From an uncultured Planctomycetales bacterium (GTDB lineage Bacteria; Omnitrophota; Gorgyraeia; Gygaellales; Profunditerraquicolaceae): a stretch of 64,000 nucleotides of DNA. Below the pieces are notes generated by a model. The model did not search any database, had not been told where the DNA came from, and worked only from the letters and a program-made list of their open reading frames with translations. How positions within the stretch are numbered: the stretch's first letter is position 1; each line of letters begins with the position of its first letter. A program made the translations under genes and the position numbers. Where the stretch lies: assembly GCA_964579435.1 (NCBI GenBank), contig CAZOGI010000010.1, positions 23,583-87,582 on the forward strand, given 5' to 3'. Positions 10,754-61,914 of the stretch are shown piece after piece.

Positions 10754-11458
10754 GTGAACGCGCCGCCGCAGATCAGCGCTGTCGTCATGGCCTACAACGA
10801 GGCTGGGTCCCTGCGCAGCGTCGTCGAAGAGATCGGCAGGGAATTGCAGGGGCTCTCGCGTCCCTGCGAGATCATCATCGTAAACGACGGCTCGACCGAC
10901 GGGTCCGCGCAAGCGGCAGAGGAGCTCGCCCGGGCCAACCCGTCGGTAAGCGTGATACATCATCCGGCCAACCGCGGGTTAGGGGGGGTGTACGCGACCG
11001 GATTCGCCAAGGCGCGCGGCGACTACATCACCTTTTTCCCCGCGGACGGCCAATTCCCCGCCTCGATCATCAAACGCTTCTTGTGCCGCATGGACGATGC
11101 GGACCTGATCCTGGGATACATCCCCGAACGCAAAAGCCCCGTCCTGGGGATACTTCTGTCGGCATGCGAAAAACTGCTCTACCGCTGCCTTTTCGGCCCG
11201 GTCCCGCGGCTCCAGGGGATATTCATGGTGCGCCGCTCGATACTCCGGGAGCTGAACCTGCAGAGCGACCCCGCGCGGGGATGGGGGATCGTCATGGAGC
11301 TGATCATCAGGGCCCACCGCGCACGAATGCGGATCGCGCACGAATCAACCACCATGCGCCCCCGTTCCTGCGGCTCCTCGAAAGTGAACAACATACGGAC
11401 TGCAGCGGCTAATTTCAAACAGCTCCTGCGGCTCTTCTTCATCCTCAGACGCCGATGA
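10754..11458 (+). CDS. glycosyltransferase family 2, polyprenyl-phosphate glycosyltransferase-like (DPM1/ArnC/GtrB type)
   Basis: Track ORF 10442-11458 trimmed to GTG 10754 (TTG 10745 also possible). ISAVVMAYNEAGSL...IIIVNDGSTDGS...ANRGLGG. ATGA-coupled to the downstream GT-C-like gene. Confidence 0.75.
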   Translation: MNAPPQISAVVMAYNEAGSLRSVVEEIGRELQGLSRPCEIIIVNDGSTDGSAQAAEELARANPSVSVIHHPANRGLGGVYATGFAKARGDYITFFPADGQFPASIIKRFLCRMDDADLILGYIPERKSPVLGILLSACEKLLYRCLFGPVPRLQGIFMVRRSILRELNLQSDPARGWGIVMELIIRAHRARMRIAHESTTMRPRSCGSSKVNNIRTAAANFKQLLRLFFILRRR

Positions 11459-12975
11459 AACGCTCTAGCGGCATTATCCTGGCCGTACTGCTGGCGGCCA
11501 ACCTCGTTGCGCATTTCCTGCCCCTGGAACGCCAGGCCCTGGCGCCCGACGATTACGCGGCACTGGTCCGCGCCCGGGGAGTCTCCCTGAAACAGGCCCT
11601 GAGCAACACGCTGCGCTACCCCGACCGGCCGCTCAATTATCTGGTCCTGTATCTTCAGGCGCGCTTTACCGGCGACCATCCGCAAAGAGGGCTTGTCCTT
11701 GTATTTCTCTCCAGCACGCTTTTGCTGCTGTGCGTTTTCCTCCTCTTTGATGCGCTCACCGGCGAGCGGCGCCTGGCGCTGCTGGCAGGATTCTTTTACT
11801 GCCTGCTCCCTGTAAAGCTGGAGACCTACCATACGCCGATCTTTTTCAACACCAACCTCGCCAGCTGCCTTTTCGTGCTGAGTTTCTATTTCTTTGTGCG
11901 TTTCGCGAACGAAAACCGGCGTCTTTATCTGTCTCTGTCGCTGTTGCTCTACGGAACCGGCATCTTCTGGTACGAAATCGGATTTTTCCTCCCCATCATC
12001 GCCGCGTGCTACTACCTTTTCCAGCGCAAAGAAAAGATCGACTCCCGGGCGCTCCTGCCGTACCTGTCTCTCATGGGTATCTATGCGGCGTATCGCCTCT
12101 CGGGCGGGTTCGGTTGTGCGGACAGACCGGAGAGCACGCACCAGCTCCGGGCGGCGGCGTTTCCGCTCAATCTGCTGGAGCTGGCGCACCACCTGGGCGG
12201 CCGCTATCTCCTGCGCACCGCCGGCTACGGCCTTATGCAATTTTTCAAAGCGGATCTTGCCTGGCCGCTGGTATGGGCCGGGTGCAATGCGGCGTTACTC
12301 ACCCTGATCCAAAAGAGACACATGACACAGGACACAAGACACAAAAAAGAACCGGTCAACAACCTGTTTCTGACGTGTGTCTTCGCCTTTTTCGCGCTGC
12401 CCATCCTGCTCAACGGGGCAGGGGGGGTTGCCGGAAGACACCTGGTCCTGCCGTCGCTGGCCCTGGCACTGTGGCTTGCCCTCTGGTGCGACCGGCCTGC
12501 GCCCGCGGGCCGCCGGTTTTGGATCTGGATCAGCGCAGGGCTCCTGTGCATCAGCCAGGGGACTGCCTGGAGCCAGGTCGTCGCCTGCCGGATCAATGCG
12601 GGGATCTACCGCGCATTGAAAGCCAATGCCCCGCAGTTGCAGAAGGCCGAAACGGTCATCATCGATCTGGAGAGCTTCGCCCGCCACATCCCGTTCACCC
12701 TCGTGCAGCGCGATTTCAATGTGCTCAACACCTATTACGGCGTCCAGTGCCTGGAAGACTGGGGACTGGTCTCGATGGTGCGCCTTGCCGGCGGCTCCCG
12801 GCACCGGACGTATAGCGCGGTTTCTACGCCCGCTCCCGAAGGGGCCGATGAGCTGCGCTTCTCGATACTGCAGGACGCCGGCTACCGTACCAAGAAACGC
12901 CTGACGATAACCGTGCCGAAGAAAAACTCCTTCCTCCTCGACTATGCAGACGCACAACGATACTTTCCCCGCTAA
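11455..12975 (+). CDS. polytopic membrane protein, probable GT-C glycosyltransferase
   Basis: 506 aa. Many TM helices and a first-loop acidic motif APDDY. Carries an in-frame GACACNN heptamer repeat at 12316-12344. Confidence 0.5.
   Translation: MKRSSGIILAVLLAANLVAHFLPLERQALAPDDYAALVRARGVSLKQALSNTLRYPDRPLNYLVLYLQARFTGDHPQRGLVLVFLSSTLLLLCVFLLFDALTGERRLALLAGFFYCLLPVKLETYHTPIFFNTNLASCLFVLSFYFFVRFANENRRLYLSLSLLLYGTGIFWYEIGFFLPIIAACYYLFQRKEKIDSRALLPYLSLMGIYAAYRLSGGFGCADRPESTHQLRAAAFPLNLLELAHHLGGRYLLRTAGYGLMQFFKADLAWPLVWAGCNAALLTLIQKRHMTQDTRHKKEPVNNLFLTCVFAFFALPILLNGAGGVAGRHLVLPSLALALWLALWCDRPAPAGRRFWIWISAGLLCISQGTAWSQVVACRINAGIYRALKANAPQLQKAETVIIDLESFARHIPFTLVQRDFNVLNTYYGVQCLEDWGLVSMVRLAGGSRHRTYSAVSTPAPEGADELRFSILQDAGYRTKKRLTITVPKKNSFLLDYADAQRYFPR
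12316..12344. repeat. GACACNN heptanucleotide tandem repeat (4 units), copy inside a CDS
   Basis: AGACACATGACACAGGACACAAGACACAA matches 29274-29302 at 26 of 29 positions (23 of the 26-nt paired 12-mer core). Read in the same codon phase at both loci. Confidence 0.75.
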
Positions 12976-28027: not shown

Positions 28028-28049
28028 GCTCTTGCGCCATACGCACGCT

Positions 28050-29297
28050 ATGGCCGACTCCCGTCACCGACAACCAACCGCTGCGGTGCGCGTCATGCGC
28101 ATCATCGCCCGCCTGAATATCGGCGGCCCGGCAATCCATGCGGTACTGCTCAGCAGCTGCCTGGACCGGAACCGTTTCGAAACGCTCCTGGTCACCGGGG
28201 AAAAAGAGCCCCGGGAAGGGGACATGTCCTATCTGGCCAGGCGCGCGCGGATAGAAGCGGTGGTCATCCCGCAGATGCGCCGGTCACTCAACCCCTTGCT
28301 CGACCTGATCGCCTTCTTTAAGATCTGCGGCTTGATCTCCCGTTTCCGGCCGCAGATCCTGCACACCCACACCGCCAAAGCCGGCACCCTCGGGCGCCTG
28401 GCTGCCTTAACGATCAACCTCTGGCGCGCCCTGACCTTGAGCCCCTTCATCCGCACGGTGCATACGTTCCACGGTCATGTGCTCAGCGACTATTTCAACC
28501 CGATCCAGACCGCTTTCTTCCGAACGCTTGAACGCCTTCTCGCGGCAGGGACCGACCGGCTCGTGACCGTCAGCGAAACGGTTAAACAGGATCTACTGCG
28601 CCTCAAGATCTCCTCCGGGAAACGATTGAGCGTCATCCGGCTTGGGTTCGACCTCGAGCCTTTTTTGTCGCTTGAGCCGGCCCGTTGCGCTACCAGACCG
28701 CGGGTCGGCATCGTCGGCAGGCTCGTGCCGATCAAGAACCACCGCATGTTCCTGGACGCGGTCACGCTCCTGGAAACGGACGCGCAGGCGCATTGTGACT
28801 TTGAAATCATCGGTGACGGCGAGCTGCGCGAATCGCTTCAGTCTTATGCGCAACAGAAAGGCATCGCAGCGCACCTTGAGTTCCGGGGCTGGCAACAGGA
28901 CCTGCCGGCCGTCTACCGCAACCTCGACATCGTCGCGCTGACCTCACTCAACGAAGGCACGCCCGTCTCGATCATCGAAGCGCTCGCCTCAGGGCGAGCG
29001 GTCGTCGCAACCCAGGTCGGAGGGGTCAGCGATCTGCTCGGAGCGGCCCGCAGCGGTTTCGAGGATAACGCTGGTTTCAAAGTATGCCAGCGGGGAATAC
29101 TCATCCGCTCCGGCGATGCGCGCGGCCTCTTTGAGGCGCTGCGGTTTCTCTGCGCGCATCCGCAGCTGTGGCCGGCGCTTACCGAAGCAGGCAGGATATT
29201 CGCCCGGGAGAATTTCGGCAAGGAGCGGCTGGTGGGGGAGATAGAGCGACTGTACGGGGAGTTATTGAAACATAGACACATGACACCTGACACATGA
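28050..29297 (+). CDS. glycosyltransferase family 4 (GT-B fold)
   Basis: Track ORF 28032 trimmed to ATG 28050. RIIARLNIGGPAIH and EGTPVSIIEALASGRAVVAT. The last 8 codons and the stop lie inside the GACACNN repeat. Confidence 0.75.
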   Translation: MADSRHRQPTAAVRVMRIIARLNIGGPAIHAVLLSSCLDRNRFETLLVTGEKEPREGDMSYLARRARIEAVVIPQMRRSLNPLLDLIAFFKICGLISRFRPQILHTHTAKAGTLGRLAALTINLWRALTLSPFIRTVHTFHGHVLSDYFNPIQTAFFRTLERLLAAGTDRLVTVSETVKQDLLRLKISSGKRLSVIRLGFDLEPFLSLEPARCATRPRVGIVGRLVPIKNHRMFLDAVTLLETDAQAHCDFEIIGDGELRESLQSYAQQKGIAAHLEFRGWQQDLPAVYRNLDIVALTSLNEGTPVSIIEALASGRAVVATQVGGVSDLLGAARSGFEDNAGFKVCQRGILIRSGDARGLFEALRFLCAHPQLWPALTEAGRIFARENFGKERLVGEIERLYGELLKHRHMTPDT

Positions 29298-29390: not shown

Positions 29391-29419
29391 TTGTGCCTGG
29401 TCACCCGATTTGTTATAAT
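29391..29419 (+). promoter_or_regulatory. sigma70-like promoter TTGTGC-17 nt-TATAAT, leaderless-type
   Basis: -35 at 29391-29396 and -10 at 29414-29419. Only 8 nt separate the -10 from ATG 29428, and there is no SD. Confidence 0.5.
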
Positions 29420-29427
29420 ATAGACTT

Positions 29428-32466: not shown

Positions 32467-32482
32467 CCGCTCCTTTTCCCGC

Positions 32483-47084: not shown

Positions 47085-47752
47085 TCCCCGCCCACAACGA
47101 AGAGGGCACGATCCGGACGCTCCTGGAAAGAACCCGGGAGTTTCTCGGCGGAACCGGGGAATGCGAGATCATTGTGGTCGATGACGGCTCAAGCGATAAA
47201 ACCGCAGAGCGGGTGCAGAAACTGGCGGCATCGATCCCGACGATACGGCTCCTGCGTCTTTCTCCCCGCAGAGGGCAGGGGATGGCGCTTGCCGCCGGGA
47301 TTGCTGCCGCACAGACCGGCATCATCGTCACGATGGATGCCGACCTGCAGAACGACCCGGCCGATATCCCGGCCCTGCTTGAGCGTCTCGAAAACGGCTT
47401 TGACGTTGTCTGCGGCTGGCGCAAAAACAGGAAAGACCCGTTCGTAAAACGAATAAAATCCCGGGTCGCCAACCTCTTGCAACGCCTTTTGCTCGGCGTT
47501 AAACTGCATGATATGAGCTGCACCCTGCGCGCCTACCGGCGGGAGGCGCTCGAAGGGATCGAATTCGGGCGGGGGTATGATTTTTCGCTCCTGCCGTACC
47601 TGATCGCGCGCCGCAAAGCCATGCGCATCTGCGAGGTCCCGGTCAGCCACGAGCGCCGGCACAGCGGCACCTCCAAATACGGGTTTTGGGGGACCTGCGC
47701 CGGGACATTCGTCAGTTTTGTGCGCTGCGTTGCAGCGCGACCGCATAAATGA
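47066..47752 (+). CDS. glycosyltransferase family 2, polyprenyl-phosphate glycosyltransferase (ArnC/GtrB/DPM1 type)
   Basis: Track ORF 46373 trimmed to ATG 47066. CSIVIPAHNEEGTI...IIVVDDGSSDKT...MDADLQNDP...CTLRAYRREAL. Confidence 0.85.
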   Translation: MRCSIVIPAHNEEGTIRTLLERTREFLGGTGECEIIVVDDGSSDKTAERVQKLAASIPTIRLLRLSPRRGQGMALAAGIAAAQTGIIVTMDADLQNDPADIPALLERLENGFDVVCGWRKNRKDPFVKRIKSRVANLLQRLLLGVKLHDMSCTLRAYRREALEGIEFGRGYDFSLLPYLIARRKAMRICEVPVSHERRHSGTSKYGFWGTCAGTFVSFVRCVAARPHK

Positions 47753-47799
47753 GGCGTGACCATCTAGAAACAAGAGACCTGGGTCAGGAAACATGCACA

Positions 47800-49704
47800 A
47801 TGCAAGGATACCCCATGACTGATCGCCGATTCAACCTTTTCATCAGCTTCGCCTGCCTGGCGCTCATCGCGCTCTCCTACGCCAACACTCTCAAGGCGGA
47901 TTTCCACTTCGACGATTTCGACAGCATCGTCAATGTCCCGGCGATCCGCAGCCTGACCAATTTCAAGGAGATATTCCGTCTCACCGAACGGCCGCTCGTC
48001 AACTACTCCTTCGCCGTCAACTACTTCTTCGGAAAACTCAACGTCACCGGATTCCATCTGGTCAATATCGGGCTCCACGCGCTCTGCACGCTGCTGGTCT
48101 TTTTCTTCCTGCGGGAATTGCTTGGCGTACCCCTGCTTAAGGAACGCTACAGCCAAAAGATTGGCCGGTGGCTCTCTGCGGGAAGCGCGTTTCTTTTTGC
48201 CGTCCATCCGGCCAGAGTGGAAGCGGTCACGTATATTACCGCCCGATCGGAGAGCATGGCGTCGGCTTTTTATCTGCTCTCCTGCCTTTGCTTCCTGAAA
48301 TCCCTCTCTGACATCAAGAGAGAGCGGCTCTTCCAAGCGGCGGCAATTGTAGCCAGCGCCATCGGCATGGCAACCAAGGAGATCGTCGCCACACTGCCGG
48401 CGTCCCTGCTGCTGCTCGATTATCTTTTTGTGTGCGCCGGGAATCCCGCCTGCCTGAAGAAACGCGCCCGGTTCCATGCCTCGATGTTCGCCACGATCGC
48501 CGTTACCGTTGCGCTGGTGCTCTATTCGGACAAATGGGGAGCAGCCGGACTGGGTAACCCGAACCTGCACACGCCCCTTCAACACGCCCTCAGTGGTTTG
48601 CGCGCGTACGTCTATTATCTGGCCCTTTTCATCTTTCCGGCACCCGGACGCCTTAACTTCGACACCGATTTTGCCCTCTCCCGCAGCTTCACCGAACCGC
48701 AGGTCCTCGGCGCAAGCCTCTTCATCGCCGCGGCACTTGTCTTGGCCCTGTACGAATCGCGCCGGTGCCCCTTGATCACCTTCGCGATCTTGTGGTATTT
48801 TCTCCTGCTTCTGCCGACCACCAGCTTCATTCCGATCGAAGACCTCGTCTATGAGCGCAGGATGTATCTGGCCGCGCTCGGGCCCGGGCTCATCACGCTC
48901 CTTGCCCTCGGGCCGCTTCCCCGACGCCTGCGCATCGGCATTCTGGCGCTGACAGTCGGGATCCTCTCCCTGTGGACCATCCAGCGCAACGCCATCTGGC
49001 GAACCGAATTCTCCCTCCTGAGCGATTCGCTCAAAAAATCTCCGTACAAAACCCGCACGCTTACGAATATGGGCATGTTTTACCTCACCAAACAACAGGA
49101 CTTAGCTGCTGCCCGCTCCTACCTTGCCAGGGCCTTGCACTACAACCCGGATGCGGCAAACAGCCTGCTGAATATGGGCGTGGTGCAGCTGTTGGAGAAC
49201 AATCTGTCCGGGGCAGAACAACTTTTCCGTAAATTGCTTTATCTCTTTCCGGACGCAACCGCCGGCTATGTCAACCTGGCGACCGTATACCGCCGCTCCG
49301 GCCGGCTCCGGGAAGCAGAAGAGCTTCTACGAACCGCAATCACCATCGAACCTTCCTTCGCGGAAGCGTACGGGAATCTGGGCGTTATTCTGGCAAGCAA
49401 AAGAGAATTTGAGGAAGCCGAAAAGGCGCTTATTAAATCAATCGCTCTGAATCCCGATCTGCCTGAGCCGCACCATAGCCTGGGGCTCATCTATCAGAAG
49501 AGGGGTGACCATAAAAACGCTATCACTCAATTCCAGAGAGCCGTCACTTTGCAGCCTCAATTTTCAAAGGCTCTTTACAGCATGGGCATCTCGTACCTGG
49601 CGCTTGGAGATAAAGAAAAAGCAGAGGAGACGTATGCGAAGCTCCTGAAAATCAATCTTGATCTGGCGCTAAACTTGTTGTCCAGGATTGAGTTAAGACT
49701 TTAG
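47800..49704 (+). CDS. TPR-repeat GT-C glycosyltransferase-like protein (TMTC/DUF1736-type)
   Basis: Track ORF 47749 trimmed to ATG 47800. TM1 then FHFDDFD, about 10 TM helices, and a C-terminal TPR array. Paralogue of 34685-37456. Confidence 0.7.
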   Translation: MQGYPMTDRRFNLFISFACLALIALSYANTLKADFHFDDFDSIVNVPAIRSLTNFKEIFRLTERPLVNYSFAVNYFFGKLNVTGFHLVNIGLHALCTLLVFFFLRELLGVPLLKERYSQKIGRWLSAGSAFLFAVHPARVEAVTYITARSESMASAFYLLSCLCFLKSLSDIKRERLFQAAAIVASAIGMATKEIVATLPASLLLLDYLFVCAGNPACLKKRARFHASMFATIAVTVALVLYSDKWGAAGLGNPNLHTPLQHALSGLRAYVYYLALFIFPAPGRLNFDTDFALSRSFTEPQVLGASLFIAAALVLALYESRRCPLITFAILWYFLLLLPTTSFIPIEDLVYERRMYLAALGPGLITLLALGPLPRRLRIGILALTVGILSLWTIQRNAIWRTEFSLLSDSLKKSPYKTRTLTNMGMFYLTKQQDLAAARSYLARALHYNPDAANSLLNMGVVQLLENNLSGAEQLFRKLLYLFPDATAGYVNLATVYRRSGRLREAEELLRTAITIEPSFAEAYGNLGVILASKREFEEAEKALIKSIALNPDLPEPHHSLGLIYQKRGDHKNAITQFQRAVTLQPQFSKALYSMGISYLALGDKEKAEETYAKLLKINLDLALNLLSRIELRL

Positions 49705-49810
49705 TGAGGAGTGAGGAGTTAGGAGTTTGGAGTTTGGAGCTATGCTTTTAGTTCGTATTTTCTCCCAACTCCTAACTCCCTACCCCCAACTCCCTACTCC
49801 CAACTCCCGA
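49705..49810. repeat. inverted arrays of heptanucleotide tandem repeats (long imperfect hairpin; possible terminator/insulator)
   Basis: Left arm: GAGGAGT GAGGAGT TAGGAGT TTGGAGT TTGGAGC. About a 20-nt AT-rich spacer. Right arm: CTCCCAA CTCCTAA CTCCCTA CCCCCAA CTCCCTA CTCCCAA CTCCCGA. The arms are largely complementary. Confidence 0.8.
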
Positions 49811-49910
49811 ATCACCTTGCCGCCTAAAATGAGCGATGGCATACTTTATAATAGGTAAGAAGATCGGCAACAAAAACCATGACACCAGAGACAAGAAAAC
49901 AAAAAAGAAA

Positions 49911-49938
49911 GTGACTCTTGAGAATAAAATAATATAAT
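49911..49938 (+). promoter_or_regulatory. candidate promoter GTGACT-16 nt-TATAAT, very short leader
   Basis: Sits in the AT-rich 245-nt intergenic region. -10 at 49933-49938, with ATG 49951 lying 12 nt downstream and no SD. Confidence 0.4.
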
Positions 49939-49950
49939 AATAGTTAAGCC

Positions 49951-52900
49951 ATGAAGAGCTTACCGACAAAGAAATTTTTCCGCACTTTTCTCATCCTGGG
50001 GATAACGACGCTCCTGTGCGCAACCCCGCATGCCCTTGCCGCAACCCGTTTCTATTTCGACGCCTCAACCGCAGCAGATGTCACTGCCTCCTATGACGCC
50101 GGCTGGGAATACCAATCCGAGGCAGGCCGCTACAAACTCAACAGGACCAAAGGCTCCTCCGCAATAACCATCGGCACCCAGATCGGCCCCTGGACCGCCG
50201 GCAGCGCCAACCAGGCCCTTGACCGCCAGTACATAAGCGATCCGATCGAAGCCCAGACCATAAGCGGCACGGTCAAAGGCCAGGTCATGTCGCGTGAATA
50301 CAACACCAGCGATAACGTGAACCGGATGTACATCACGGTCAAAGTCGTCTCCAACGACGGTTCCAGCGTGCGGGGGACACTCCTTGCCCTCAATACCTAT
50401 TACACGAATGCCGAACTGATCAGCAACGTAACCCACCGCAACGCCATCCTTGCCAATTCCGACACCGTCACCAACGTCACCGCGCAGCAGGGCGACCGCA
50501 TCCTCATCGAGATCGGCTTCGGCAGCTCGACAACCCAGACCACGCCCGAAGGCTCCTGCAAATGGGGGGAGAATGCATCCGACCTCCCGGAAAACGAAAC
50601 CCAAACAACCGACGGTGCGGGGTGGTTTGAGTTCTCCGCGGATATCACTTTCTATACTCCGCCCAAACCGCAATTCACCCAGAAAGCCTACCAGTGGGAG
50701 AATGACGATTCAACCTCAGGCGTCAACGCCAATTCACAGGCAGCCGAAGACAATACCGCCCTTACCGACGTGCGCATCGGACAGCGCCTCACCTGCAGGA
50801 TGCAGGTCGAGAACGACTCAACCGCCGCATCGAGCGACACCGTCTATCAGCTGCAGTGGGAGAACAACACCGATAACCCCGGGCGCTGGTTCCCGGTCGG
50901 CTACGGGACGCAGATCTCGTACGCAACCGGGCTCGCCGGCTTAAGCGGCGCCTCAACCGGCACCACCGCGCTCTGCGGAACCCCCACGTACACCATGGTC
51001 GCCGGCACCTGGCAGTCAGGGACGAGCCAGAACCCGCCCCACTCCATGGAGACGCAGCGAAGCGCGGAATTCTCTTTTGTCATCGACACCGCCAACGCAA
51101 AAGAAAATAAAGTCTATCGCCTGCGCCTCTTCGACAAAACAAACGCCCAGGCTTTCAATGCCTACACCGTCTATCCGCAGCTGACCACCGTCACCGCCGC
51201 CAACAACACCCTGCGCTACAGCAAAGAGCCACTCGATGCGGTGCAGAACACCTGGCGCATGGCCTCCTATCTGGACGAAACCGGCTATGACAACAGCGCC
51301 TCGGATAACTCGGTTTACGATTCGCTCCCCGCCCGGCGGCTTGCCCTTCGTGCGCAAGCCGACCTGACCTTTACCTCATTCGATGTTTCGCAATACCCGA
51401 CCTCGCAGATGGCCGTAGGCGTGGGAGACTTCAACAACGACGGCTACAACGACCTGCTCATGGGCGGCCAGCGCTACGCGACCTATGTCGGCCGGGCATA
51501 CCTTTATCTCGGCGGCAGCCCGATGGACAGCGTCTGTGACCTCACCATGCAGGCCGGTGCCCTCTACACCAATTCTTATTTCGGCTCCGCGGTCGCGGTC
51601 GGAGATATCAACAACGACAGTTTCGACGACGCCGTGGTCGGCAACTGGGGGTATTACCGTATGTACCTCTACTACGGCTCCACGACCATGAACAACGTCA
51701 TCGACATGACCTTTACCGGCGAAGCGACGAGCGACTACTACGGCTATTCGATCGGCATCAACGACGTCAACGGCGACAGCTTCAAGGATATCGTCACCAA
51801 CGCCCAGTGGTGGAATAACGGCCAGGGAAGACTCTACGTCTATTACGGCGGCACCACGATGAACAATGTTTGTGACCTGACGATAAACGGACAGGGAGGG
51901 GTGCACAACTATCCCGGGTTCGCCTGCGTCGTCGAAGACGTCAACAACGACAGTTTTGCCGACATACTCGTCAGCTCTCCCTACTACTACTATTCGGACA
52001 TGCGCGGCAGGGCATGGCTCTGGTACGGCGGAAACCCGATGGATGCCACCTGCGACAAGACCTTTACCGGAGAGACAACGGGCTCCTATTTCGGCGCTTC
52101 GGGATTATCGATCGGCGAAGTCAATAACGACGGCTTTAAGGACATCCTTATCGGAGCCTACGTCTACAGCTCCACGAAGGGCCGATCGTATCTTTTTTAT
52201 GGAGCGACCGGCACGAGCATGGATATAACCGCTGACAAAACCATCACCGGGAACGCGGGAGACTATCAGGGACAGGGAGAGCAGATCGTCGACGTCAATA
52301 ACGACGACTACGCTGACCTGGTCATCGGCGCCGATGCCTTCGGCAACAGCAGGGGAGTGGTCAAGATTTACTACGGCGGCGCCGACATGGACATCGTCGA
52401 AGACCTCAGCATCGCCACGGGCCAGACAGGCAACTATTTTTCCCAATCGGTCAATACGGGCGACCTGAACAACGACGGGGCCGCTGACCTGATCATCGGA
52501 GCCAACAGCTATCCGAGCCTCACCTACCAGGGCCGCGCCTGGGTTTATTACACCAAACCCCTCTTTGCCCCAACCCAGATCTTCGCCAAAAAGAACACCA
52601 ACAACACCGATTACATCGCCTTTGCCTGGAAAGGCAAAACCGACATGGCCGCAACTTCCGACAACATCATCGTCGAGGCTGCCCAGCAGACGGCGATGGA
52701 TGGCACTAACGACGAGACATTCACCGGAGAAGCGGGGAGCAATTTTTTCAGCAACTGTATCGCGCTTGCCGATTTCAACAACGACCATTACCAGGACCTG
52801 GTGCTGGGCGCCGACGGCTACAACAGCAACCAGGGCCGCGCCTATCTCTACTACGGCGGCACCGGCATAGTCGACACCGCCGCGGCACTTACGTTTAATT

Positions 52901-55900
52901 GTCCGGACACCGGCACCAATTATTTTGCGGGAGGCGGCTGGACCGTATCAACCGGGGACGTAAACGGGGACCTTTATGCCGACCTGCTCCTGGGGGCCGT
53001 CGGCTATAACACGAACATGGGCCGGGCTTTCCTGTACTTAAGCAAGCGCTTCGGCCTCATGGACGGCAGCCCTGACCTGACGCTCACCAGCCCGGCGACC
53101 GGCACAAACTCTTTCGGCAGGAACGCCGTCGGAGACGTCAACGGCGACGGTTTTGCCGATATGCTTATCGGTGCGCCCAGCTACGACACCAATAGGGGCC
53201 GGGTATACCTCTACTACGGCGCCTCAACTCCCGACGCCACTGCTGACCTGGTCCTCGCCGGCGAGACAACCGGAACCTATTTCGGCGACCGGATTGCGGT
53301 CAGTGACGTGAACGGCGATTATTTCTCGGACGTGCTGGTTATGGCTTATGCCTATGCCTCGACCCGCGGCAGGGCATACCTCTATTACGGCGGCACGACC
53401 ATGGATGCCACCTGTGACAAGACCTTTACCGGAGAAGCATCAAACACCAATTTCGGCCGCAGCGGCGGCATCGGCGATATCGATAACGACGGCTACGGCG
53501 ACGTCGTCATCGGGGCCAACCTGTACGCAACAAGCAGCGGCCGCGCCTATCTGTTCTGGGGCGCCACCAACATGGATGTCACCTGCGACAAAACCTTCAC
53601 CGGCGAAACAGCAAGCATACAGTTCGGCCAGGATGTCAGCATTTCCGACCTCAACGCCGACTCCTACGGGGATCTGGTCGTCACCGCCTACACCTGGAAC
53701 ACCAGCCAGGGCCGCGCCTATGTCTACAAAGGCGCCAGCCAGGCCTCCTTTGATACGACCTGTGACCTCACCTTAAGCGGCCTCACCACTACCGACAACT
53801 ACGGACGGGCCGCCCGCTCAGGCGATGTCAACAACGACGGATTCGCCGACCTGGTCGTCGGCGCCTACAATTACAACAGCGGACGCGGCCGGGCGTACCT
53901 CTATTACGGCGATACCGTCTCCTGGGTGACCCAGGCAACCGAAAGTTCCCTGGCAGCAGACACCCCCGGATGGATATACGCGTTCATCGATACCGACCCG
54001 AACCTCTATTACACGCCGGATAACTGGACGTATTGGCGGGTCTATCAGGCTCCGGGACAAGATACCAAAATTCTGGATATCGATTACGTGCAGTTCGACT
54101 TCCAGGCAACGGCGGTCAAGCTCATCTCTTTCTGGGCATTCGGCAAGGACGAAGAGGTCCAGGTCAGATGGGAAACCGCCTCTGAATCGCAGAACCTGGG
54201 CTTCAACCTCTACCGCTCGACATCCTCCGACGGAACTTACACCAAGATAAACGCAGGGATCATCTCCGGCCTCGGCAGCTCGCTGACCGGCAAAGAATAC
54301 TCCTTTACCGACGCCGATGTCTCAAACGGCCGCACCTACTACTACAAGCTGGAATCGATCGAGTTCACCGGCACCCGCGTCATGCACGGCCCCATCGAAG
54401 CGCATCCCGGGCTCGATGCCGACTCAGACGGCATGAGCGACGACTGGGAGGCGCATTACGGGCTCAACAGCGCTGACGCCTCGGACGCAGGGGCAGACCG
54501 CGACAGCGACGGACTGACGAATCTGCAGGAATACACCCTGGGCACCGACCCGACCCGCTCGGGCCAGGTAAGCGCAGGCGCAAGCGGCAGCGGCGGGCTC
54601 ACCGTCGTCTCCAGCGACTCAACCGGCATCACCCTGGAACTGCGCACCCCCGGGATCGAAAGCCGCACCGTCACCGTCAACAAACAAGCGTATCAATCCC
54701 TGAGCATCCCTGCCTATGCGCACGGCTATACGGCCATAAGCGCAAGCGCGCGCATGCCGGTCAAGCCGGTGATGCTTGCCCTGCCGCCCAATGCCGGCTG
54801 TTCCGTAGAAATCCTCAGCGAAGAGACGGAGATCTTCAGTAATTATACGGTAGAGCCGGTTACCACCTACACCCTGGAAGCGGATGCCAACGAAGAAGCG
54901 CTGCAATCGGGAGGCTTCGGCAAAACAGGACCGCTCGAGATAACGGTCGATCCGGCCGCGATCAACACCGTCTTCTATCAGCAGGACAGCAGCTATCCCG
55001 GGGAGCGCGCCGAGGTCGAATGGGTGGGAGATCTGCGCTCTCAGCGTATCGCCTGCCTGCGCCTGGCGCCGCTGCGCTTCAACCCGGCAAAGAAGGAGCT
55101 GACGATCTCCAAAGTCCTGCGCGTGCGGGTCACCTTTACCCAGGGAGGCGCTGCATCGGGAAACTGGCAGCTCTCCGAAACGGCCAAAAACGCGCGCATC
55201 AAGATCAAAACCGAAGGAGGCGGCATCCGCCGGCTTACCTGGACCGACCTGTATAACGCCGGCCTCACCGACGTGATCTGGTCCGACCCGCGACTCCTTT
55301 CCATGACCAACCTCGGCACGGAAATCGCTATCCGCGTCAAAGGCGAAGAGGACGGGATCTTCAATTTCGACGATTACGTGGAATTTTACGCCCGGGAAAT
55401 ACCGGCGCATTACGATGGATCGAGCCCCTACGCCGCGTATGCAAAATACTCTCCCCACAATGTTTACTTTTTGGGCTTTGGATCCTCCAACGGCAAACGC
55501 ATGGAGACGCGCGAAAGCAGCGCCAATGAAGGAAGCGTCTCGCCCGCGCGCTTCCGCCACACCGCCACCTTCGAGCAGAACGATTTTTACTGGAGCACCC
55601 GGGCGGGAGGGGAGCACGCAGACCGCTGGTTCTGGTCGCCTGCCCTCTGGGAAGACACGAGCCAGGAATACGCGCTGAACCTGCCCCATGTCGATGTCGA
55701 CAGCGCCGCCGAGACGGCAAGCGTCTCTTTGGTGTACTACCCGCTCCTGTACCTGCCGCAGCCCAGCGAAACCGCCAAAGCGACCGTCGCCCACGAAACA
55801 AGCGCAACCCTCAACGGCGTCTCCCTCGGCAGTGACACCTGGCAGGGCATGCAGGAACGCACCATCGAGGCGGAAATCGCACACGCCAGCCTTATTACCG

Positions 55901-57924
55901 GAAGCAACACCCTCAAGCTCGCGCACAAGAAAGTATCGCCTGCCGAGCACGACGCTCTTATCGCCAATTATTGCACGATCACCTACTGGCACACATTTGA
56001 GGCGGATTCGGACGCGCTCTCCTTCTCCTGCGCGAGCGAAACAGGGGACACCGCCGCATTCACGGTCACCGGCCTGACGACCCAGGAATGCTCTGCTTAC
56101 GATATTACCGATCCTGCCCAGCCGGTCGCCTTTTCCGGGCTCTCCGCGGTTTTCGACCCCGGAACCAACACCTACTGCGTTTCCTTCAAAGACGATATCC
56201 CGGCGGCGCAGGAGCGCCGTTATCTGGTGCTGGCCGACGCGCAAAAGACAGCCCCCGCGGCCCTTTCCTTCGTTGCCGCGCCGGCGCTTGACCTGAGCCT
56301 CGCCGGCAACCACGCCGATTACCTGATCATCACTCATTCCTCTTTTTCGGACGCCCTGGAGCCCCTCAAAAACCTGCACACCGCCCAGGCACTCGACGTG
56401 CAGATCATCGACATCGAAGATATCTATAACGCCTTCGCGTACGGGTTCCCGACGCCGCAGGCGGTCAAGGACTTCGTCAGCTACGCCTACGCGAACTGGA
56501 AAGGGCTCTGCCAAAAAACCTCGCCGCCCCGGGTCATGGCCCCGACGTACGTGCTCCTCGTCGGAGACGCCCACTACGATTACCGCGACAATCTCGGGAC
56601 CGGGCGCAGCATCTATGTGCCGACCTACCTCATTGCGGATCAACCCAATATCGGCGAGACCGCATCCGACAACTGGTTCGCCTGCATGGGGGGACAGGAG
56701 GATACCCTTGCGGATCTCTTTATCGGAAGGCTGCCGGTCAGGACAAACCAGGAGTGCCAGGCGGTAGTCTCCAAAACAATCGCCTACGCGGCACAGGAGG
56801 CCGGGGGAGCGTATACGCGGGCAACCTTCCTGGCCGATGTCGGCAGCGAATTCGAGCAGACCTGCGAGAGCCTCTCCGGCAAACTCTCCGCCGAAGTAAC
56901 CGGGCAAAAACTCTATTTGTCGGACTACCCCAGCGCCGCCTCGTTCGTCTCCGGACTCATCTCCTCCGTCAACAGCGGGACGCTCCTCTTGACCTATGTC
57001 GGCCACGCCGCAACCTATCTCTGGACCGCCGACGGCTCATTCGACACCGACTCCGTCGCCTCTCTGAACAACACCGCCGCCTTCCCGCTGGTCGTTTCCC
57101 TCGACTGCCTCGACGGCTACTTTATCAACCCCCAGGAACAGTACGAATCCCTCGCCGAGACCTTCCTGCGCAAATCCGGCTCCGGCGCCGTCGCCTGTTT
57201 CTCGCCCTCGGGCATGGGCATGCCGTCAAGCCATCTCATACTCGGCACCTATTTCTATAAAGCGCTCTTTGAGAGCGGCTCAACCCATCTGGGACAGGCG
57301 GCAACCGAAGCAAAACTCAATTATTTCGCCAGCACCGGCGCCGCCGGGCTGGACTTGGTGCATACCTATAACCTCTTGGGGGACCCGGCGCTCGCCCTGA
57401 AGATCCCGGCCGCTGCGTCCCAGACCGGCCAGACCGCCGTGACGACGACTGCCGCCGCGACAACTCAAACCGCAACAGAATCGGAATCCGCAACGACAAC
57501 GAGCGCGGAAACAGACGCCTTTACCTCGATCCTCGGCTCGGCGCTGGCCAACGTTGAAGAAGGCAAGAAATGGCGCGACGAAACCAAACAGGCCAAAGAC
57601 CCCCAGGACCCGGCAGAAACATCCGCGGAACCGCAGGGCGTCCTCGCGAAACTGCCGATCCCCAGGATCATCAAAGAGATCGTCAAGAAACAGAAGACGG
57701 CGCTGACGCAGCCAGCCGGCCAACCCGCGGCAACCGGTCTCACCCATGCGGATACCGCGCCGGAGGGAAGCGAATACGCTCAAGACGCAACAGTCCCGGA
57801 GCGTTCATCCGCCGTGCAGCAGAAATCCCCGCGCACGAATATCCTGCGCACCGTCATCGAAACAGTCTGGAAAGCTGTAGTCACCTTCTTCAAAAAACTC
57901 CTGGCCCTGATCCTGGGTAAATGA
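49951..57924 (+). CDS. giant secreted protein: 14 FG-GAP repeats (two predicted 7-bladed propellers) + TSP3-like acidic motif + peptidase C25 (gingipain-like) domain
   Basis: 2657 aa. Signal peptide ...LLCATPHALA. 14 D-x-N-x-D-x-x-x-D / GRAYLYYG units. DADSDGMSDDWE...DSDGLTNLQEYTLGTDP. C25-like ADYLIITH..., YVGHA (His codon 57004-57006), SLDCLDGYF (Cys codon 57106-57108). T/A/E-rich linker and a hydrophobic C-terminal tail. Confidence 0.9.
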   Translation: MKSLPTKKFFRTFLILGITTLLCATPHALAATRFYFDASTAADVTASYDAGWEYQSEAGRYKLNRTKGSSAITIGTQIGPWTAGSANQALDRQYISDPIEAQTISGTVKGQVMSREYNTSDNVNRMYITVKVVSNDGSSVRGTLLALNTYYTNAELISNVTHRNAILANSDTVTNVTAQQGDRILIEIGFGSSTTQTTPEGSCKWGENASDLPENETQTTDGAGWFEFSADITFYTPPKPQFTQKAYQWENDDSTSGVNANSQAAEDNTALTDVRIGQRLTCRMQVENDSTAASSDTVYQLQWENNTDNPGRWFPVGYGTQISYATGLAGLSGASTGTTALCGTPTYTMVAGTWQSGTSQNPPHSMETQRSAEFSFVIDTANAKENKVYRLRLFDKTNAQAFNAYTVYPQLTTVTAANNTLRYSKEPLDAVQNTWRMASYLDETGYDNSASDNSVYDSLPARRLALRAQADLTFTSFDVSQYPTSQMAVGVGDFNNDGYNDLLMGGQRYATYVGRAYLYLGGSPMDSVCDLTMQAGALYTNSYFGSAVAVGDINNDSFDDAVVGNWGYYRMYLYYGSTTMNNVIDMTFTGEATSDYYGYSIGINDVNGDSFKDIVTNAQWWNNGQGRLYVYYGGTTMNNVCDLTINGQGGVHNYPGFACVVEDVNNDSFADILVSSPYYYYSDMRGRAWLWYGGNPMDATCDKTFTGETTGSYFGASGLSIGEVNNDGFKDILIGAYVYSSTKGRSYLFYGATGTSMDITADKTITGNAGDYQGQGEQIVDVNNDDYADLVIGADAFGNSRGVVKIYYGGADMDIVEDLSIATGQTGNYFSQSVNTGDLNNDGAADLIIGANSYPSLTYQGRAWVYYTKPLFAPTQIFAKKNTNNTDYIAFAWKGKTDMAATSDNIIVEAAQQTAMDGTNDETFTGEAGSNFFSNCIALADFNNDHYQDLVLGADGYNSNQGRAYLYYGGTGIVDTAAALTFNCPDTGTNYFAGGGWTVSTGDVNGDLYADLLLGAVGYNTNMGRAFLYLSKRFGLMDGSPDLTLTSPATGTNSFGRNAVGDVNGDGFADMLIGAPSYDTNRGRVYLYYGASTPDATADLVLAGETTGTYFGDRIAVSDVNGDYFSDVLVMAYAYASTRGRAYLYYGGTTMDATCDKTFTGEASNTNFGRSGGIGDIDNDGYGDVVIGANLYATSSGRAYLFWGATNMDVTCDKTFTGETASIQFGQDVSISDLNADSYGDLVVTAYTWNTSQGRAYVYKGASQASFDTTCDLTLSGLTTTDNYGRAARSGDVNNDGFADLVVGAYNYNSGRGRAYLYYGDTVSWVTQATESSLAADTPGWIYAFIDTDPNLYYTPDNWTYWRVYQAPGQDTKILDIDYVQFDFQATAVKLISFWAFGKDEEVQVRWETASESQNLGFNLYRSTSSDGTYTKINAGIISGLGSSLTGKEYSFTDADVSNGRTYYYKLESIEFTGTRVMHGPIEAHPGLDADSDGMSDDWEAHYGLNSADASDAGADRDSDGLTNLQEYTLGTDPTRSGQVSAGASGSGGLTVVSSDSTGITLELRTPGIESRTVTVNKQAYQSLSIPAYAHGYTAISASARMPVKPVMLALPPNAGCSVEILSEETEIFSNYTVEPVTTYTLEADANEEALQSGGFGKTGPLEITVDPAAINTVFYQQDSSYPGERAEVEWVGDLRSQRIACLRLAPLRFNPAKKELTISKVLRVRVTFTQGGAASGNWQLSETAKNARIKIKTEGGGIRRLTWTDLYNAGLTDVIWSDPRLLSMTNLGTEIAIRVKGEEDGIFNFDDYVEFYAREIPAHYDGSSPYAAYAKYSPHNVYFLGFGSSNGKRMETRESSANEGSVSPARFRHTATFEQNDFYWSTRAGGEHADRWFWSPALWEDTSQEYALNLPHVDVDSAAETASVSLVYYPLLYLPQPSETAKATVAHETSATLNGVSLGSDTWQGMQERTIEAEIAHASLITGSNTLKLAHKKVSPAEHDALIANYCTITYWHTFEADSDALSFSCASETGDTAAFTVTGLTTQECSAYDITDPAQPVAFSGLSAVFDPGTNTYCVSFKDDIPAAQERRYLVLADAQKTAPAALSFVAAPALDLSLAGNHADYLIITHSSFSDALEPLKNLHTAQALDVQIIDIEDIYNAFAYGFPTPQAVKDFVSYAYANWKGLCQKTSPPRVMAPTYVLLVGDAHYDYRDNLGTGRSIYVPTYLIADQPNIGETASDNWFACMGGQEDTLADLFIGRLPVRTNQECQAVVSKTIAYAAQEAGGAYTRATFLADVGSEFEQTCESLSGKLSAEVTGQKLYLSDYPSAASFVSGLISSVNSGTLLLTYVGHAATYLWTADGSFDTDSVASLNNTAAFPLVVSLDCLDGYFINPQEQYESLAETFLRKSGSGAVACFSPSGMGMPSSHLILGTYFYKALFESGSTHLGQAATEAKLNYFASTGAAGLDLVHTYNLLGDPALALKIPAAASQTGQTAVTTTAAATTQTATESESATTTSAETDAFTSILGSALANVEEGKKWRDETKQAKDPQDPAETSAEPQGVLAKLPIPRIIKEIVKKQKTALTQPAGQPAATGLTHADTAPEGSEYAQDATVPERSSAVQQKSPRTNILRTVIETVWKAVVTFFKKLLALILGK

Positions 57925-60207: not shown

Positions 60208-61824
60208 GTGGACCGTTCAGACCCCGAGACCGTCTCGCTCTCGCTGGTACGCGACAGCCTCAATGTCCGCGGCGGGACGATCACCCTCACGATCGCCGGA
60301 TCCTGCATGTCGCCGCTGATCCGGGCAGGAGACCGCGTCACCATACGATCGGTTTCTTTCGCTGAACTCACTCCCGGCGACATAATCGCCTTCCAGGACC
60401 GCAACCTGCTCTACGCGCACCGCCTGACCGGCAAAGATCCCCGCACGCAGAATCTGCACACCCAGGCGGACCGGTCATGGCAGACGGACATCGCGTTCTC
60501 CTTTTCCCAGGTGTTGGGAAAAGTGACCGCCGTCTCGAAACAGGGCAGGACCCTGCATCTTGACCGCTTCCCCGGCCGGCAGATCAACCGTGCCTATGGC
60601 GCCTGCCGCCGCCTGCTTCAGGCGATCACGCTCCCCGCGCGAGCGGCGCATGAGGCCCTGCGCCGGAGGCAGGGGACAGAGGAGCGGCAAGCACTCTTTG
60701 CGGTTGTCTCTGTCGCCAGCCGCGGCTTTCTGGAGACCCCGTTCCCGCTGCCGGAGCGCATCGATGAGCCCCTCTTTGGGGAACAGGCGCGCGCCCAAAC
60801 ACTGGCACCCTGGTGCTTTTGCGTACTGCGCGATCGGCAGCGCGACCACGATGTTTTTTCTCCCACTCTGCGCGAAACGCTCAGGCTCGAATATTACGAA
60901 ACCTTTTCCCTGAATGCCCAATCCCTCCCCGGGACACAGGAACTCTTCGCTCACCTGCGCGCCCAGGAGATCGGATTCCTCGTCTTCAAAGGCCTGGTGC
61001 TGGCCCAGGGCGTCTATGCGGATATCGGAGCGCGCCGCCTGGGAGACACCGATATCCTCATCAGAAGGGAGGACCTCTCCCGTCTCGACCGGGTCCTGCG
61101 CGAGAGAGGCTTTCGTTGTCCGGTTCCCCTCACGGCAGTCCCGGAGGCGCCCAACGCGTACCGCAATGCGCTGCTGTATTTGCCTCCCGACGGATCCCTG
61201 CAGAGACCGCTGCATGTGTACTGGCACTGGGTCAATCTCGCCGCGTTTTCCCGGCGCCTCCCCGGGTCGATACGGATGGAACGGATCTGGCAGGACCGCA
61301 TCAAGGTCGACATCGCCGGCATCTGCCTGGAGACGTTCTCCTGGGAACATCACCTCATCTACCTGTCCATGCACGCGCTCGCCCATTCCTATTTCCCGCT
61401 CAGCACCCTTATCGACATCGCCGGGCTGCTGACGAAACGCCGAAAAGACCTCGAGTGGAACGGCATCCTCAAAGACGCCCAGACCTTCGGCCTGGAGCGG
61501 CCGCTCTTGCTTGCCCTCACCCTGGCCCGGGAGATCTGCTCCGCCCCGGTTCCCGCCGCGGCGTTAAGCCGGCTACGGCCAACCCGCCTGAGCTTATTCG
61601 AAAGACGCTTCATCGCAGACGCGCAGCGGTTACGGCTGAAAACGGGAAAAGAGTGGCTCCTTTACCTGGGCATGAACGACACGCCGCTTGAGCGCCTCGA
61701 TTTTATCCTCCGCGCGCTTTTTCCGCCCGCGCACCTTCTTGCCCTCATCCGCCAGCAGCCGCGCGCCGCCCTCGCCGCATCGTACGGGAAACGCCTGGTC
61801 GCGGCAATGCGCAGCGCCTCCTAA
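60208..61824 (+). CDS. fusion protein: S26B (SipW/Sec11)-like signal-peptidase domain + NTP_transf_5-type nucleotidyltransferase
   Basis: 538 aa with GTG start. N-terminal IAGSCMSPLIRAGDRV...GDIIAF...YAHRL...ADRSWQTD...LGKVTAV follows the ER-type SPase pattern. Central KGLVLAQGVYADIGARRLGDTDILIRREDL nucleotidyltransferase motif. Confidence 0.7.
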   Translation: MDRSDPETVSLSLVRDSLNVRGGTITLTIAGSCMSPLIRAGDRVTIRSVSFAELTPGDIIAFQDRNLLYAHRLTGKDPRTQNLHTQADRSWQTDIAFSFSQVLGKVTAVSKQGRTLHLDRFPGRQINRAYGACRRLLQAITLPARAAHEALRRRQGTEERQALFAVVSVASRGFLETPFPLPERIDEPLFGEQARAQTLAPWCFCVLRDRQRDHDVFSPTLRETLRLEYYETFSLNAQSLPGTQELFAHLRAQEIGFLVFKGLVLAQGVYADIGARRLGDTDILIRREDLSRLDRVLRERGFRCPVPLTAVPEAPNAYRNALLYLPPDGSLQRPLHVYWHWVNLAAFSRRLPGSIRMERIWQDRIKVDIAGICLETFSWEHHLIYLSMHALAHSYFPLSTLIDIAGLLTKRRKDLEWNGILKDAQTFGLERPLLLALTLAREICSAPVPAAALSRLRPTRLSLFERRFIADAQRLRLKTGKEWLLYLGMNDTPLERLDFILRALFPPAHLLALIRQQPRAALAASYGKRLVAAMRSAS

Positions 61825-61859
61825 CCCAACTCCTTCAGCGACTGGGAATTAAAAAAATC

Positions 61860-61888: not shown

Positions 61889-61914
61889 ATTAAAAATATA
61901 GGTAAGAGGGGACA

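Follow-up and report, generated by a model that had tools for sequence, protein, structure and literature searches.

Heptanucleotide-repeat palindromes behind stop codons and within reading frames, seen from an envelope gene island of a probable Omnitrophota relative

What kind of element separates the gene of a TPR/GT-C-like protein from the giant gene downstream of it, and what could its arrays of seven-nucleotide repeats do to the transcripts that carry them? The question is raised by a 64-kb stretch of DNA, referred to here as the window, which constitutes one large envelope/polysaccharide island with genes for GT2, GT4 and GT-C (PMT_2 plus TPR) enzymes, nucleotide-sugar epimerases, B12-radical-SAM enzymes, an asparagine synthase and a Wzz/GNVR kinase. 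The giant gene (49951..57924) encodes a protein of 2657 aa with FG-GAP repeats and a peptidase C25 domain. A search of 5.8 billion proteins with the TPR/GT-C-like protein returned only the source protein itself and one homologue of 42% identity (P0002), which is encoded in a different gene context, and a scan of genome contigs with it gave no match above 30% identity. The BLASTP alignment with this homologue reaches to 3-4 residues from both C-termini, and the TAG that precedes the element is therefore the native stop of the gene. All named top matches of the epimerase encoded at 27005-28027 belong to Candidatus Omnitrophota (75-78% identity), and the gene order epimerase, GT4, WbaP-like, Wzy and spermine-synthase-like is common to the window and Omnitrophota contigs.

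Table 1. Positions of the element and of neighbouring features in the window
Feature	Position	Strand	Basis or remark
TAG stop of the TPR/GT-C-like gene (47749..49704)	49702..49704	+	Native C-terminus
Left arm, 5 tandem heptamers, GGAGT core	49706..49740	+	GAGGAGT x2, TAGGAGT, TTGGAGT, TTGGAGC
Spacer, 21 nt, AT-rich, TATGCTTTTAGTTCGTATTTT	49741..49761	+	Sequence
Right arm, 7 tandem heptamers, complementary CTCCCAA-like type	49762..49810	+	Sequence
Predicted RNA/DNA hairpin, ~32 bp in coaxial helices	49703..49798	+	Minimum-free-energy fold
Promoter-like site GTGACT-16 nt-TATAAT, 10/12 matches	49911..49938	+	Consensus match only; regional count equals shuffle expectation

The element is made up of two opposite-strand arrays that lie close together and are able to form a stem-loop (Table 1). 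Each array consists of head-to-tail 7-nt units and is longer than expected by chance, as in the LSSR/STRR-like heptanucleotide repeats, and both are called by Tandem Repeats Finder with period 7, at 5.3 and 6.7 copies, respectively. The left array begins 1-3 nt past the stop codon; the units of the right arm read, in order, CTCCCAA, CTCCTAA, CTCCCTA, CCCCCAA, CTCCCTA, CTCCCAA and CTCCCGA. An earlier inspection of the letters and open reading frames, the sequence-only reading, had placed the element at 49705-49810; its unit sequences stand, and its start has to be moved, since the first unit begins one base later. The bases just 5' of the array, CTTTAGT, resemble a degenerate heptamer unit. An inverted-repeat search gave 76% complementarity for arms of 37 nt and 89% for a core of 18 nt, and overall the arms are only 76-80% complementary. 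The sequence GGAGTNNGGAGTNNGGAG has, with up to 2 mismatches, 10 matches in the 64-kb window, all of them within 49701-49814, where shuffles lead one to expect 0.63. The array-pattern search found no second GGAGT copy in the window, and Rfam covariance models gave no match at gathering threshold across its whole length. The element cannot be described as a MITE, given that a target-site duplication is missing: the flanks GACTTTAG|T... and ...CGA|ATCACCTTG have no direct repeat in common.

When periods 4 to 12 were compared, period 7 was the sole enriched short tandem period in the window (4 regions versus 0-1). Two further heptamer arrays, absent from the sequence-only reading, are located at 12316 and 29266, and as hairpins they fold no better than shuffles (z -0.3 and -0.7). 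The second of these (29266-29334) overlaps the stop of the GT4 gene and is missing at the orthologous junction of the syntenic Omnitrophota relatives, which would be consistent with a lineage-specific gain. On an Omnitrophota contig (L147/L149), a stretch of 21 kb holds six period-7 arrays and no array with a period of 5, 6, 8, 9 or 10. The tract at 61818-61835 that had been taken for a relative of the element is present as described, but its CTCC cores are 12 nt apart, off the 7-nt register, and the array pattern misses it; its membership in the same feature is not supported.

The proposal that the two arrays form a long hairpin is borne out by folding energies and z-scores on both strands. 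As RNA, the + strand folds with -42.5 kcal/mol (z -4.4; 0 of 200 shuffles as good) and the - strand with -55.3 kcal/mol (z -6.6), meaning that the antisense strand folds better than the sense strand. Among 4260 sliding windows of 110 nt across the 64 kb, the element is the top GC-corrected structure outlier on both strands. The minimum-free-energy fold has a perfect 13-bp core, in which 49715-49727 would pair with 49767-49779, and a small 6-bp inner helix at the spacer edges (49737-49742 with 49749-49754). The terminal 12 nt of the longer right arm are unpaired in this prediction, and alternative 7-nt registers are possible.

A role as a terminator or insulator had been considered for this hairpin, and the idea survives in part. 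Its position right after the native stop, with a promoter-like site ahead of the giant gene, suits a 3'-end or insulating structure. The element is not a canonical intrinsic terminator, however, because no U-tract follows the stem: a terminator scan found no intrinsic-terminator-like site at the element, the sequence 3' of the stem, CGAATCACCTTG, is devoid of a U-run, and the combination of a G+C-rich stem, a short loop and an immediate U-run is thus not present. The promoter-like site is embedded in an AT-rich stretch before the ATG of the giant gene and, as context, suggests that this gene has a transcript of its own; probably, the giant gene is transcribed separately from the upstream glycosyltransferase operon.

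The architecture recurs far outside the window. An exact search for three GGAGT units, 8-38 nt and three ACTCC units, that is (GGAGTNN)n-loop-(NNACTCC)n, returned 5 loci in viral contigs and at least 120 in metagenome contigs. Among the matches listed, the G+C content of the loci spans 0.37 to 0.74, and the flanks are unrelated at the DNA level except for one duplicate pair. The variable NN of the unit differs between loci, yet within each locus it is complementary between the arms. The same contigs also carry inverted heptamer arrays of unrelated units (TGTCAGG, TTGGTGG, GCGGAAC, CAGTGGT and GATGAGT), and direct searches with other cores as palindromes gave 2 loci for GTGGA, 8 for GAGTG and, in the viral contigs searched, none for GACAC. 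One of the viral contigs (L025), with genes for portal, S49 protease, capsid and head/tail completion, is a genuine structural module of a phage, and heptamer arrays are present in nearly every one of its intergenic gaps. Inverted heptamer-array palindromes are therefore found at many independent sites with unrelated flanks, and the element of the window, whose reality is beyond doubt, is very probably a member of this class, which is one of widespread, dispersed repeat palindromes. No direct target-site repeats are evident in the aligned family members elsewhere; the flanks of some copies are themselves inverted (L131 and L072). We also considered whether the arrays could be a universal three-frame stop cassette and rejected this, because many unit families, such as GGAGTGG, GGAGTCG, GGAGTCT and GGAGTGC, contain no stop triplet.

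The class follows positional rules. For these counts, only ORFs with the coding signature GC3 > GC1 > GC2 were used, at 97 loci with a G+C content of at least 0.55. Among the matches listed, the gap between an array and the nearest stop codon has a median length of 3.5 nt (n=70). The setting of 41 hairpins was resolved: the neighbouring genes are co-directional in 35 cases and convergent in 6, and in no case are they divergent. Divergent gaps make up 9.9% of the other gaps in the same contigs by count and 12.6% by length, so the absence of hairpins from them corresponds to P=0.03 and P=0.008, respectively. The depletion reaches only modest significance, and hairpins show no enrichment in convergent gaps over the background; for these reasons, the distribution fits simple promoter avoidance as well as it fits a 3'-end function. 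In the 35 co-directional cases the GGAGT arm comes first in 17 and second in 18 (among the matches listed). This lack of orientation bias argues against the suggestion that the GGAG-rich arm sequesters an SD or anti-SD sequence, as does the fact that many unrelated heptamer cores form the same structures, and that suggestion is not supported. A T-run of at least 4 follows the stem in only 3 of 58 oriented family members elsewhere, and T-runs are enriched neither past the stem nor in the loop in the sense direction; the sense strand folds better in 26 cases and the antisense strand in 32 (61 one-sided cases), so that sense is not favoured. All of these counts refer to the matches listed. With neither T-run enrichment nor a sense folding bias, the class is not one of canonical terminators, and it is not a strand-specific RNA motif either.

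Loop sequences are common to hairpins with unrelated flanks, far above a shuffled null. A GGTAC...GTACC loop is found at four loci (L038, L062, L070 and L113) and an AGG..GCAGGTCT loop at four others (L059, L072, L080 and L102), and in one contig (L035) two copies that are separated by 1.1 kb have identical loops. About 10% of the hairpins among the matches listed are in frame within long ORFs that show the coding signature on both sides. Hosts with Pfam support comprise an MFS transporter, in its central loop, an AMP-binding enzyme and LigD, each in a linker, a protein kinase domain and ABC-type ATPases. Such gene-internal copies cannot be terminators, and the class as a whole therefore need not have an RNA function. 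The clearest comparison is provided by two phage contigs (L024 and L155), which are collinear with ~74% DNA identity and have a hairpin at the same codon position of an ABC-like ATPase, between LSGGE..ARAL and AFDEFTS. The units of the two hairpins differ (GGAGTGG/GGAGAAG in one, GTGGATA/GTGGAGA in the other), as do their lengths, by 51 nt or 17 codons, and they fold with -101 and -61 kcal/mol as compared with -57 and -28 kcal/mol for shuffles. Since the sequence of these hairpins changes without loss of pairing or reading frame, selection or a process that homogenises one arm against the other must act on them.

On this basis, we consider it moderately likely that the element is a heptanucleotide-repeat palindrome of a REP/RPE-like kind and that its RNA hairpin brings the upstream transcript to an end or protects it, with the giant gene being expressed from its own promoter-like region. 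Any effect on RNA, as well as the mechanism of spread, is something that we only infer. According to this view, heptamer palindromes of the LSSR/STRR type, here with a GGAGT core, behave like REP DNA or DNA of the Rickettsia-palindromic-element type: they appear at many unrelated sites and are tolerated only at those where the harm is small, either directly past a stop, if the gap is short and the genes are co-directional or convergent, or in frame, if the protein has a loop or linker there, and their arms stay complementary while the unit sequence drifts. They may originate by 7-nt replication slippage together with palindrome-templated copying between the arms, or by a copy-and-paste process. 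If co-transcribed with the TPR/GT-C gene, the element would fold into a hairpin of ~32 bp (-42 kcal/mol) that ends the upstream cistron. As a 3'-end structure, this hairpin could block 3'-to-5' exonucleases, and it could also, or instead, offer a double-stranded processing site of the RNase III type or give partial termination without a U-tract. An RNase III substrate resembling the stem of an intervening sequence (IVS) is defined here by about two turns or more of near-continuous double-stranded RNA and by cleavage in vivo. By such means, the hairpin would separate the giant FG-GAP/peptidase-C25 gene, with its own promoter-like region, from the glycosyltransferase/radical-SAM operon that precedes it.

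It is possible, although less probable, that the element is purely selfish or neutral DNA, generated by slippage and palindrome-templated repair or mobilisation and persisting because the site behind the stop is harmless, with no selected effect on expression. This alternative comes close behind because the antisense strand folds better, the arms are imperfect and the class has no strand bias; indeed, the better fold of the - strand, the complementarity of the window arms and the sense and antisense counts given above are not what selection for an mRNA hairpin alone would predict. It is also supported by the loop-sharing copies in unrelated contexts, by the in-frame copies in protein loops, which are like those of Rickettsia palindromic elements, by the absence of an orientation bias in the class, by the array at 29266 that is missing from the relatives, and by a distribution that departs from the background only in avoiding divergent gaps. 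Against it speaks the self-complementarity kept over ~25% nucleotide divergence with changing units, which shows that some force maintains the pairing, and a stem of -42 kcal/mol located 3 nt past a stop is unlikely to be without an effect on the mRNA. It should be noted that the force that maintains the pairing could be mechanical (arm-to-arm conversion) rather than selective.

A wider and rather doubtful proposal links the hairpins to gene cassettes. The contig of the closest TPR/GT-C homologue has a GxxExxY (PDDEXK_3) gene that is bracketed by inverted CACAGAT-type arrays, and five independent GxxExxY loci are bracketed alike (CACAGAT/CGCAGAT, CAGAT-type), all of them between co-directional operon genes and with flank-to-flank folding energies of -35 to -65 kcal/mol. 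CAGAT-type hairpins that have no ORF are present in unequal numbers on two related contigs (L177 and L178). A search for GxxExxY relatives in viral contigs found nothing usable. The 23S IVS of Coxiella has a terminal inverted-repeat stem that is cleaved by RNase III in vitro. Mapping placed the 5' cut at the first tandem GACAGAT heptamer, and the copy number of this heptamer varies between strains (PMC4990558). The flanks of 23S IVS, GxxExxY and S23p-type cassettes resemble the element in forming a long stem of inverted short-repeat arrays between co-directional genes, with GACAGAT x3 in the Coxiella stem and the CACAGAT/CGCAGAT arrays in the GxxExxY brackets. However, an ORF of ~400 nt lies within those stems, the repeats of which depart from a strict 7-nt period, whereas the element of the window has a 21-nt loop and no ORF. 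The possibility that GGAGT hairpins are the specific ends of GxxExxY or four-helix-bundle gene cassettes was rejected, because the genes bracketed by heptamer arrays in GGAGT loci are ordinary housekeeping or phage genes (L9, Hsp20, HisH-like, portal and capsid), and the GxxExxY link is for the same reason one of analogy, not of membership. If one goes further nonetheless, the heptamer palindromes might be a single unrecognised class of small elements that actively spread or maintain themselves in many bacterial phyla and phages, landing right after stops or in frame in protein loops. Their arms would be kept paired by a dedicated mechanism common to the GxxExxY (PD-(D/E)XK) and S23p 'intervening sequence' cassettes, their life cycle would include the GxxExxY nuclease or processing by RNase III, and the hairpin of the window would be an ORF-less derivative that punctuates operon transcripts. 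We regard this speculation as unlikely as a whole.

Protein binding, phase-variable read-through, G-quadruplex formation and SD sequestration are less likely roles. A set of sites at which a nucleoid or regulatory protein binds the DNA, after the 'global regulator / IHF-HU' proposal for Geobacter metallireducens, is very improbable. Paired inverted arrays of 7-9-nt repeats were so annotated in that species (PMC2700814), and tandem short units are typical of multimeric binding. Within the same contigs, however, this palindromic architecture is built from many different heptamer units, which is opposed to one sequence-specific protein, it is the complementarity of the arms and not their sequence that is conserved, and the annotation in G. 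metallireducens is itself only a proposal (PMC2700814).

Slightly less credible still is the idea that the element is a slippage-variable (phase-variable) spacer, or a canonical intrinsic terminator, that sets the read-through into the giant gene. Heptamer arrays are prone to slippage, their copy number varies among Coxiella strains (PMC4990558) and between Xanthomonas species (PMC4692102), the numbers of ORF-less hairpins differ between the related contigs mentioned above, and the context of cell-envelope genes is typical of phase variation. Nevertheless, there is no U-run past the stem here or in 55 of the 58 oriented cases elsewhere among the matches listed, and the element lies outside the reading frames and ~100 nt upstream of the promoter-like site, so that gain or loss of 7 nt would have no obvious on/off effect.

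A G-quadruplex that competes with the hairpin and impedes polymerases is less probable again: the C-rich right arm is a G3N4 repeat on the template (-) strand, where 49762-49810 reads GGGAGTTGGGAGTAGGGAGTTGGGGGTAGGGAG with G3-tracts 4 nt apart and is thus capable of forming one, and G-rich heptamer repeats of Xanthomonas and Nostoc form G-quadruplexes in vitro (PMC4692102), but the left arm and many family units (GGAGTGA, GGAGTCA, GGAGTTA and GGAGTCT) have only GG runs and unrelated heptamers that are not G-rich build the same palindromes, so that this potential is not a property of the class.

For the window alone the consequence is modest, and the single locus is ordinary for its class. For the class, three rules make the question of the heptanucleotide repeats testable: the palindromes are near stop codons in either orientation, they avoid divergent promoter gaps, and the in-frame copies in protein loops remain strong hairpins over ~25% divergence. 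Should the hairpins punctuate the mRNAs of operons, through processing or stabilisation, they would be relevant to operon annotation in phages and in little-studied phyla such as Omnitrophota; should they be selfish, they would constitute a REPIN/RPE-like system with a much broader host range. Stop adjacency, orientation neutrality, in-frame copies and the maintained pairing deserve a genome-wide study.

How does the element compare with known systems? Like intrinsic terminators, it is a stable stem-loop just 3' of a stop codon; it differs from them in a far longer stem, a loop of 21 nt and the missing U-tract. REPs have been proposed or shown to stabilise the upstream mRNA and to affect termination and translation, and in-frame intragenic copies are not known from them. 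Rickettsia palindromic elements, by contrast, reportedly occur as palindromic repeats in intergenic DNA as well as in frame within coding sequences, where protein loops tolerate them (Ogata et al. 2000). These elements are 100-150 bp long, have a conserved sequence, are known only from Rickettsia and are without the 7-nt tandem units of the heptamer class. The placement of our element agrees with that of REPs and REPINs, in that it is an extragenic imperfect palindrome at a gene 3' end, 1-3 nt past the stop, and in that the class avoids divergent promoter regions (0 of 41 cases). REP, BIME and REPIN sequences likewise are imperfect extragenic palindromes by gene 3' ends at many dispersed sites, and in a REPIN a spacer separates two inverted units (PMC3116915, PMC3337134); REPs, however, have a fixed sequence of 20-35 nt, present in tens to hundreds of copies in a genome, and depend on a RAYT transposase, whereas the element is built of tandem heptamers.

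A limited literature search found no description of the GGAGT family, of its stop-codon adjacency or of maintained in-frame hairpins. Heptanucleotide repeats as such have been known since 1990, and the canonical STRR units of cyanobacterial genomes are CCCCAGT, TTGGTCA and CAACAGT. The element is not a cyanobacterial STRR in the strict sense, as its units are GGAGTNN/NNACTCC and the relatives of the epimerase are Candidatus Omnitrophota; the likeness to STRR-type repeats noted by the sequence-only reading does hold at the level of the heptanucleotide repeat class, with period 7 called by Tandem Repeats Finder and array matches over chance. According to published summaries, heptanucleotides are the commonest long SSR class in many bacterial genomes and are intergenic, and the STRRs share with the element their tandem heptanucleotides and intergenic location while being mainly direct arrays, not hairpin-forming inverted pairs (PMC4679880, PMC4692102). 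In G. metallireducens, multicopy paired arrays of 7-9-nt repeats occur on opposite strands around a variable spacer, as with five MTYCTGA units between proB and proA, and a family of four GGACCGG heptamers is also found within genes; IHF/HU or regulator binding sites or regulatory RNAs have been proposed for them (2009, PMC2700814). These arrays are like the element in being paired inverted short tandem repeats between operon genes, and they differ from it in their unit sequences. In Xanthomonas, 70-75 inverted pairs of the GGGAATC heptamer are present per genome, mainly intergenic and mostly transcribed, and related genomes differ in array length but agree in the type, single or paired (PMC4692102). 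The unit GGGAATC differs from the GGAGTNN of the window, as does the host, a member of the Gammaproteobacteria as compared with a probable Omnitrophota relative; that study addressed G-quadruplex formation, and its available part does not describe stop-codon adjacency or in-frame copies. The GGGAATC pairs of X. campestris and X. axonopodis (Rehm et al. 2015, PMC4692102) are nevertheless built like the element, from tandem 7-nt units in two close, convergent arrays on opposite strands.

Among the comparison contigs, viral or metagenomic, that the searches returned, heptamer arrays and hairpins are found both between and within genes of phage contigs. In the phage structural module of L025 (1-14211), which encodes a portal protein, an S49 protease, a major capsid protein and head and tail completion proteins, almost all intergenic gaps carry heptamer arrays or hairpins built from units such as AGGAGTT, TTTTGGA, TGGTCAG and TGGGGAT, some of them filling the whole interval between the stop of one gene and the start of the following gene. 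In the collinear phage contigs L024 and L155, orthologous ATPase genes each contain an in-frame hairpin in the linker from the LSGGE signature to the Walker B (AFDEFTS) motif. The inserts lengthen this linker, which is normally short, by 23-40 low-complexity residues; the two hairpins are composed of different units and differ in length by 17 codons.

Features discussed in the text, with positions in the window or on comparison contigs (L-numbers)
Feature	Location	Context
GACACAN heptamers, x4	window 12316-12344 (to about 12380)	in frame within PMT_2/GT-C ORF 11455..12975, 506 aa
GACACAN x4-5 + GAACACA array	window 29266-29334 (partner to about 29400)	overlaps TGA 29295-29297 of GT4 gene 28032..29297
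AT-rich TATAAT-like boxes	window 29409-29430, 49845-49862, 49931-49953, 61893-61917	before start codons
In-frame heptamer-repeat hairpin	L024 2551-2670; L155 5590-5690	phage ABC-like ATPase and its ortholog
Inverted repeat longer than the heptamer arrays	L131 8690-8780; L072 5140-5225; L023 235-345	extends into otherwise unique flanks
GxxExxY (PDDEXK_3) loci	L177 + L178 (about 430-1000 and 1390-1560); also L018, L165, L172, L173
Five period-7 arrays	L147/L149 3589-4724; one inverted pair 4115-4254	units GCTTTCA, GACTATC, CGCTATC

Inverted arrays of another type, CACAGAT/CGCAGAT, flank on both sides every GxxExxY gene seen, and each of these loci is located between co-directional operon genes. 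The GxxExxY genes (76-89% identity) come from contigs of Omnitrophica, Nitrospira and others. Upstream of its GxxExxY gene, L177 contains about four hairpins of this type that enclose no ORF, versus about two in L178. The period-7 arrays of L147/L149 begin directly past the SecA stop and extend into the N-terminus of the called LNT (apolipoprotein N-acyltransferase) gene, and the sequences of this region are identical between assemblies of different samples. The copies whose inverted repeats reach into the flanks suggest, from their sequence, that the element either inserted into a palindrome already present at the site or grew out of one; the extended repeat of L131 takes in one stop triplet per side (aagTAGcacgacag ... 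ctgtcgtgCTActt), positioned like the stops of convergent reading frames.

Window 27005-34717 has its genes (epimerase, GT4, Glycos_transf_4/CoA_binding_3, Wzy_C and spermine-synthase-like) in the same order as the Candidatus Omnitrophota contigs L150, L151, L152 and L153. The G+C content of these contigs is 0.35-0.49 against 0.61 in the window, which therefore derives from an unusually G+C-rich relative. After the main heptamer hairpin, the next most structured 110-nt windows, GC-corrected (z about -3.3 to -4.2), are 22846-22970 and 12511-12620. Both are coding: the first lies in the asparagine synthase gene, the second in the PMT_2 ORF. TATAAT-like boxes are positioned only 8-12 nt upstream of starts 29428, 49951 and 61915, the motif ATA(A/T)TAG(G/T)TAAG recurs at 49848, 49937 and 61897, and no clear Shine-Dalgarno sequence was found at start 49951. 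Starts with such close boxes may, judging by sequence, give rise to short-leader or leaderless transcripts.

The GACACAN array inside the PMT_2/GT-C ORF codes for a short hydrophilic stretch and is followed by a weak complementary GTGTGTC at about 12374; it folds no better than shuffled sequences (z -0.3). This array may belong to the same kind of element as the main hairpin, as a copy lying in frame inside a gene; alternatively, the ORF may represent two genes fused through a stop-less array. At the GT4 stop, the complementary arm 3' of the array has decayed, the fold of the array with its partner scores z -0.7 versus shuffles, and the array is missing at the orthologous GT4/WbaP-like junction of the syntenic contigs L150 and L152. 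In the Coxiella 23S intervening sequence the heptamer is GACAGAT, one base different from the unit of this array.
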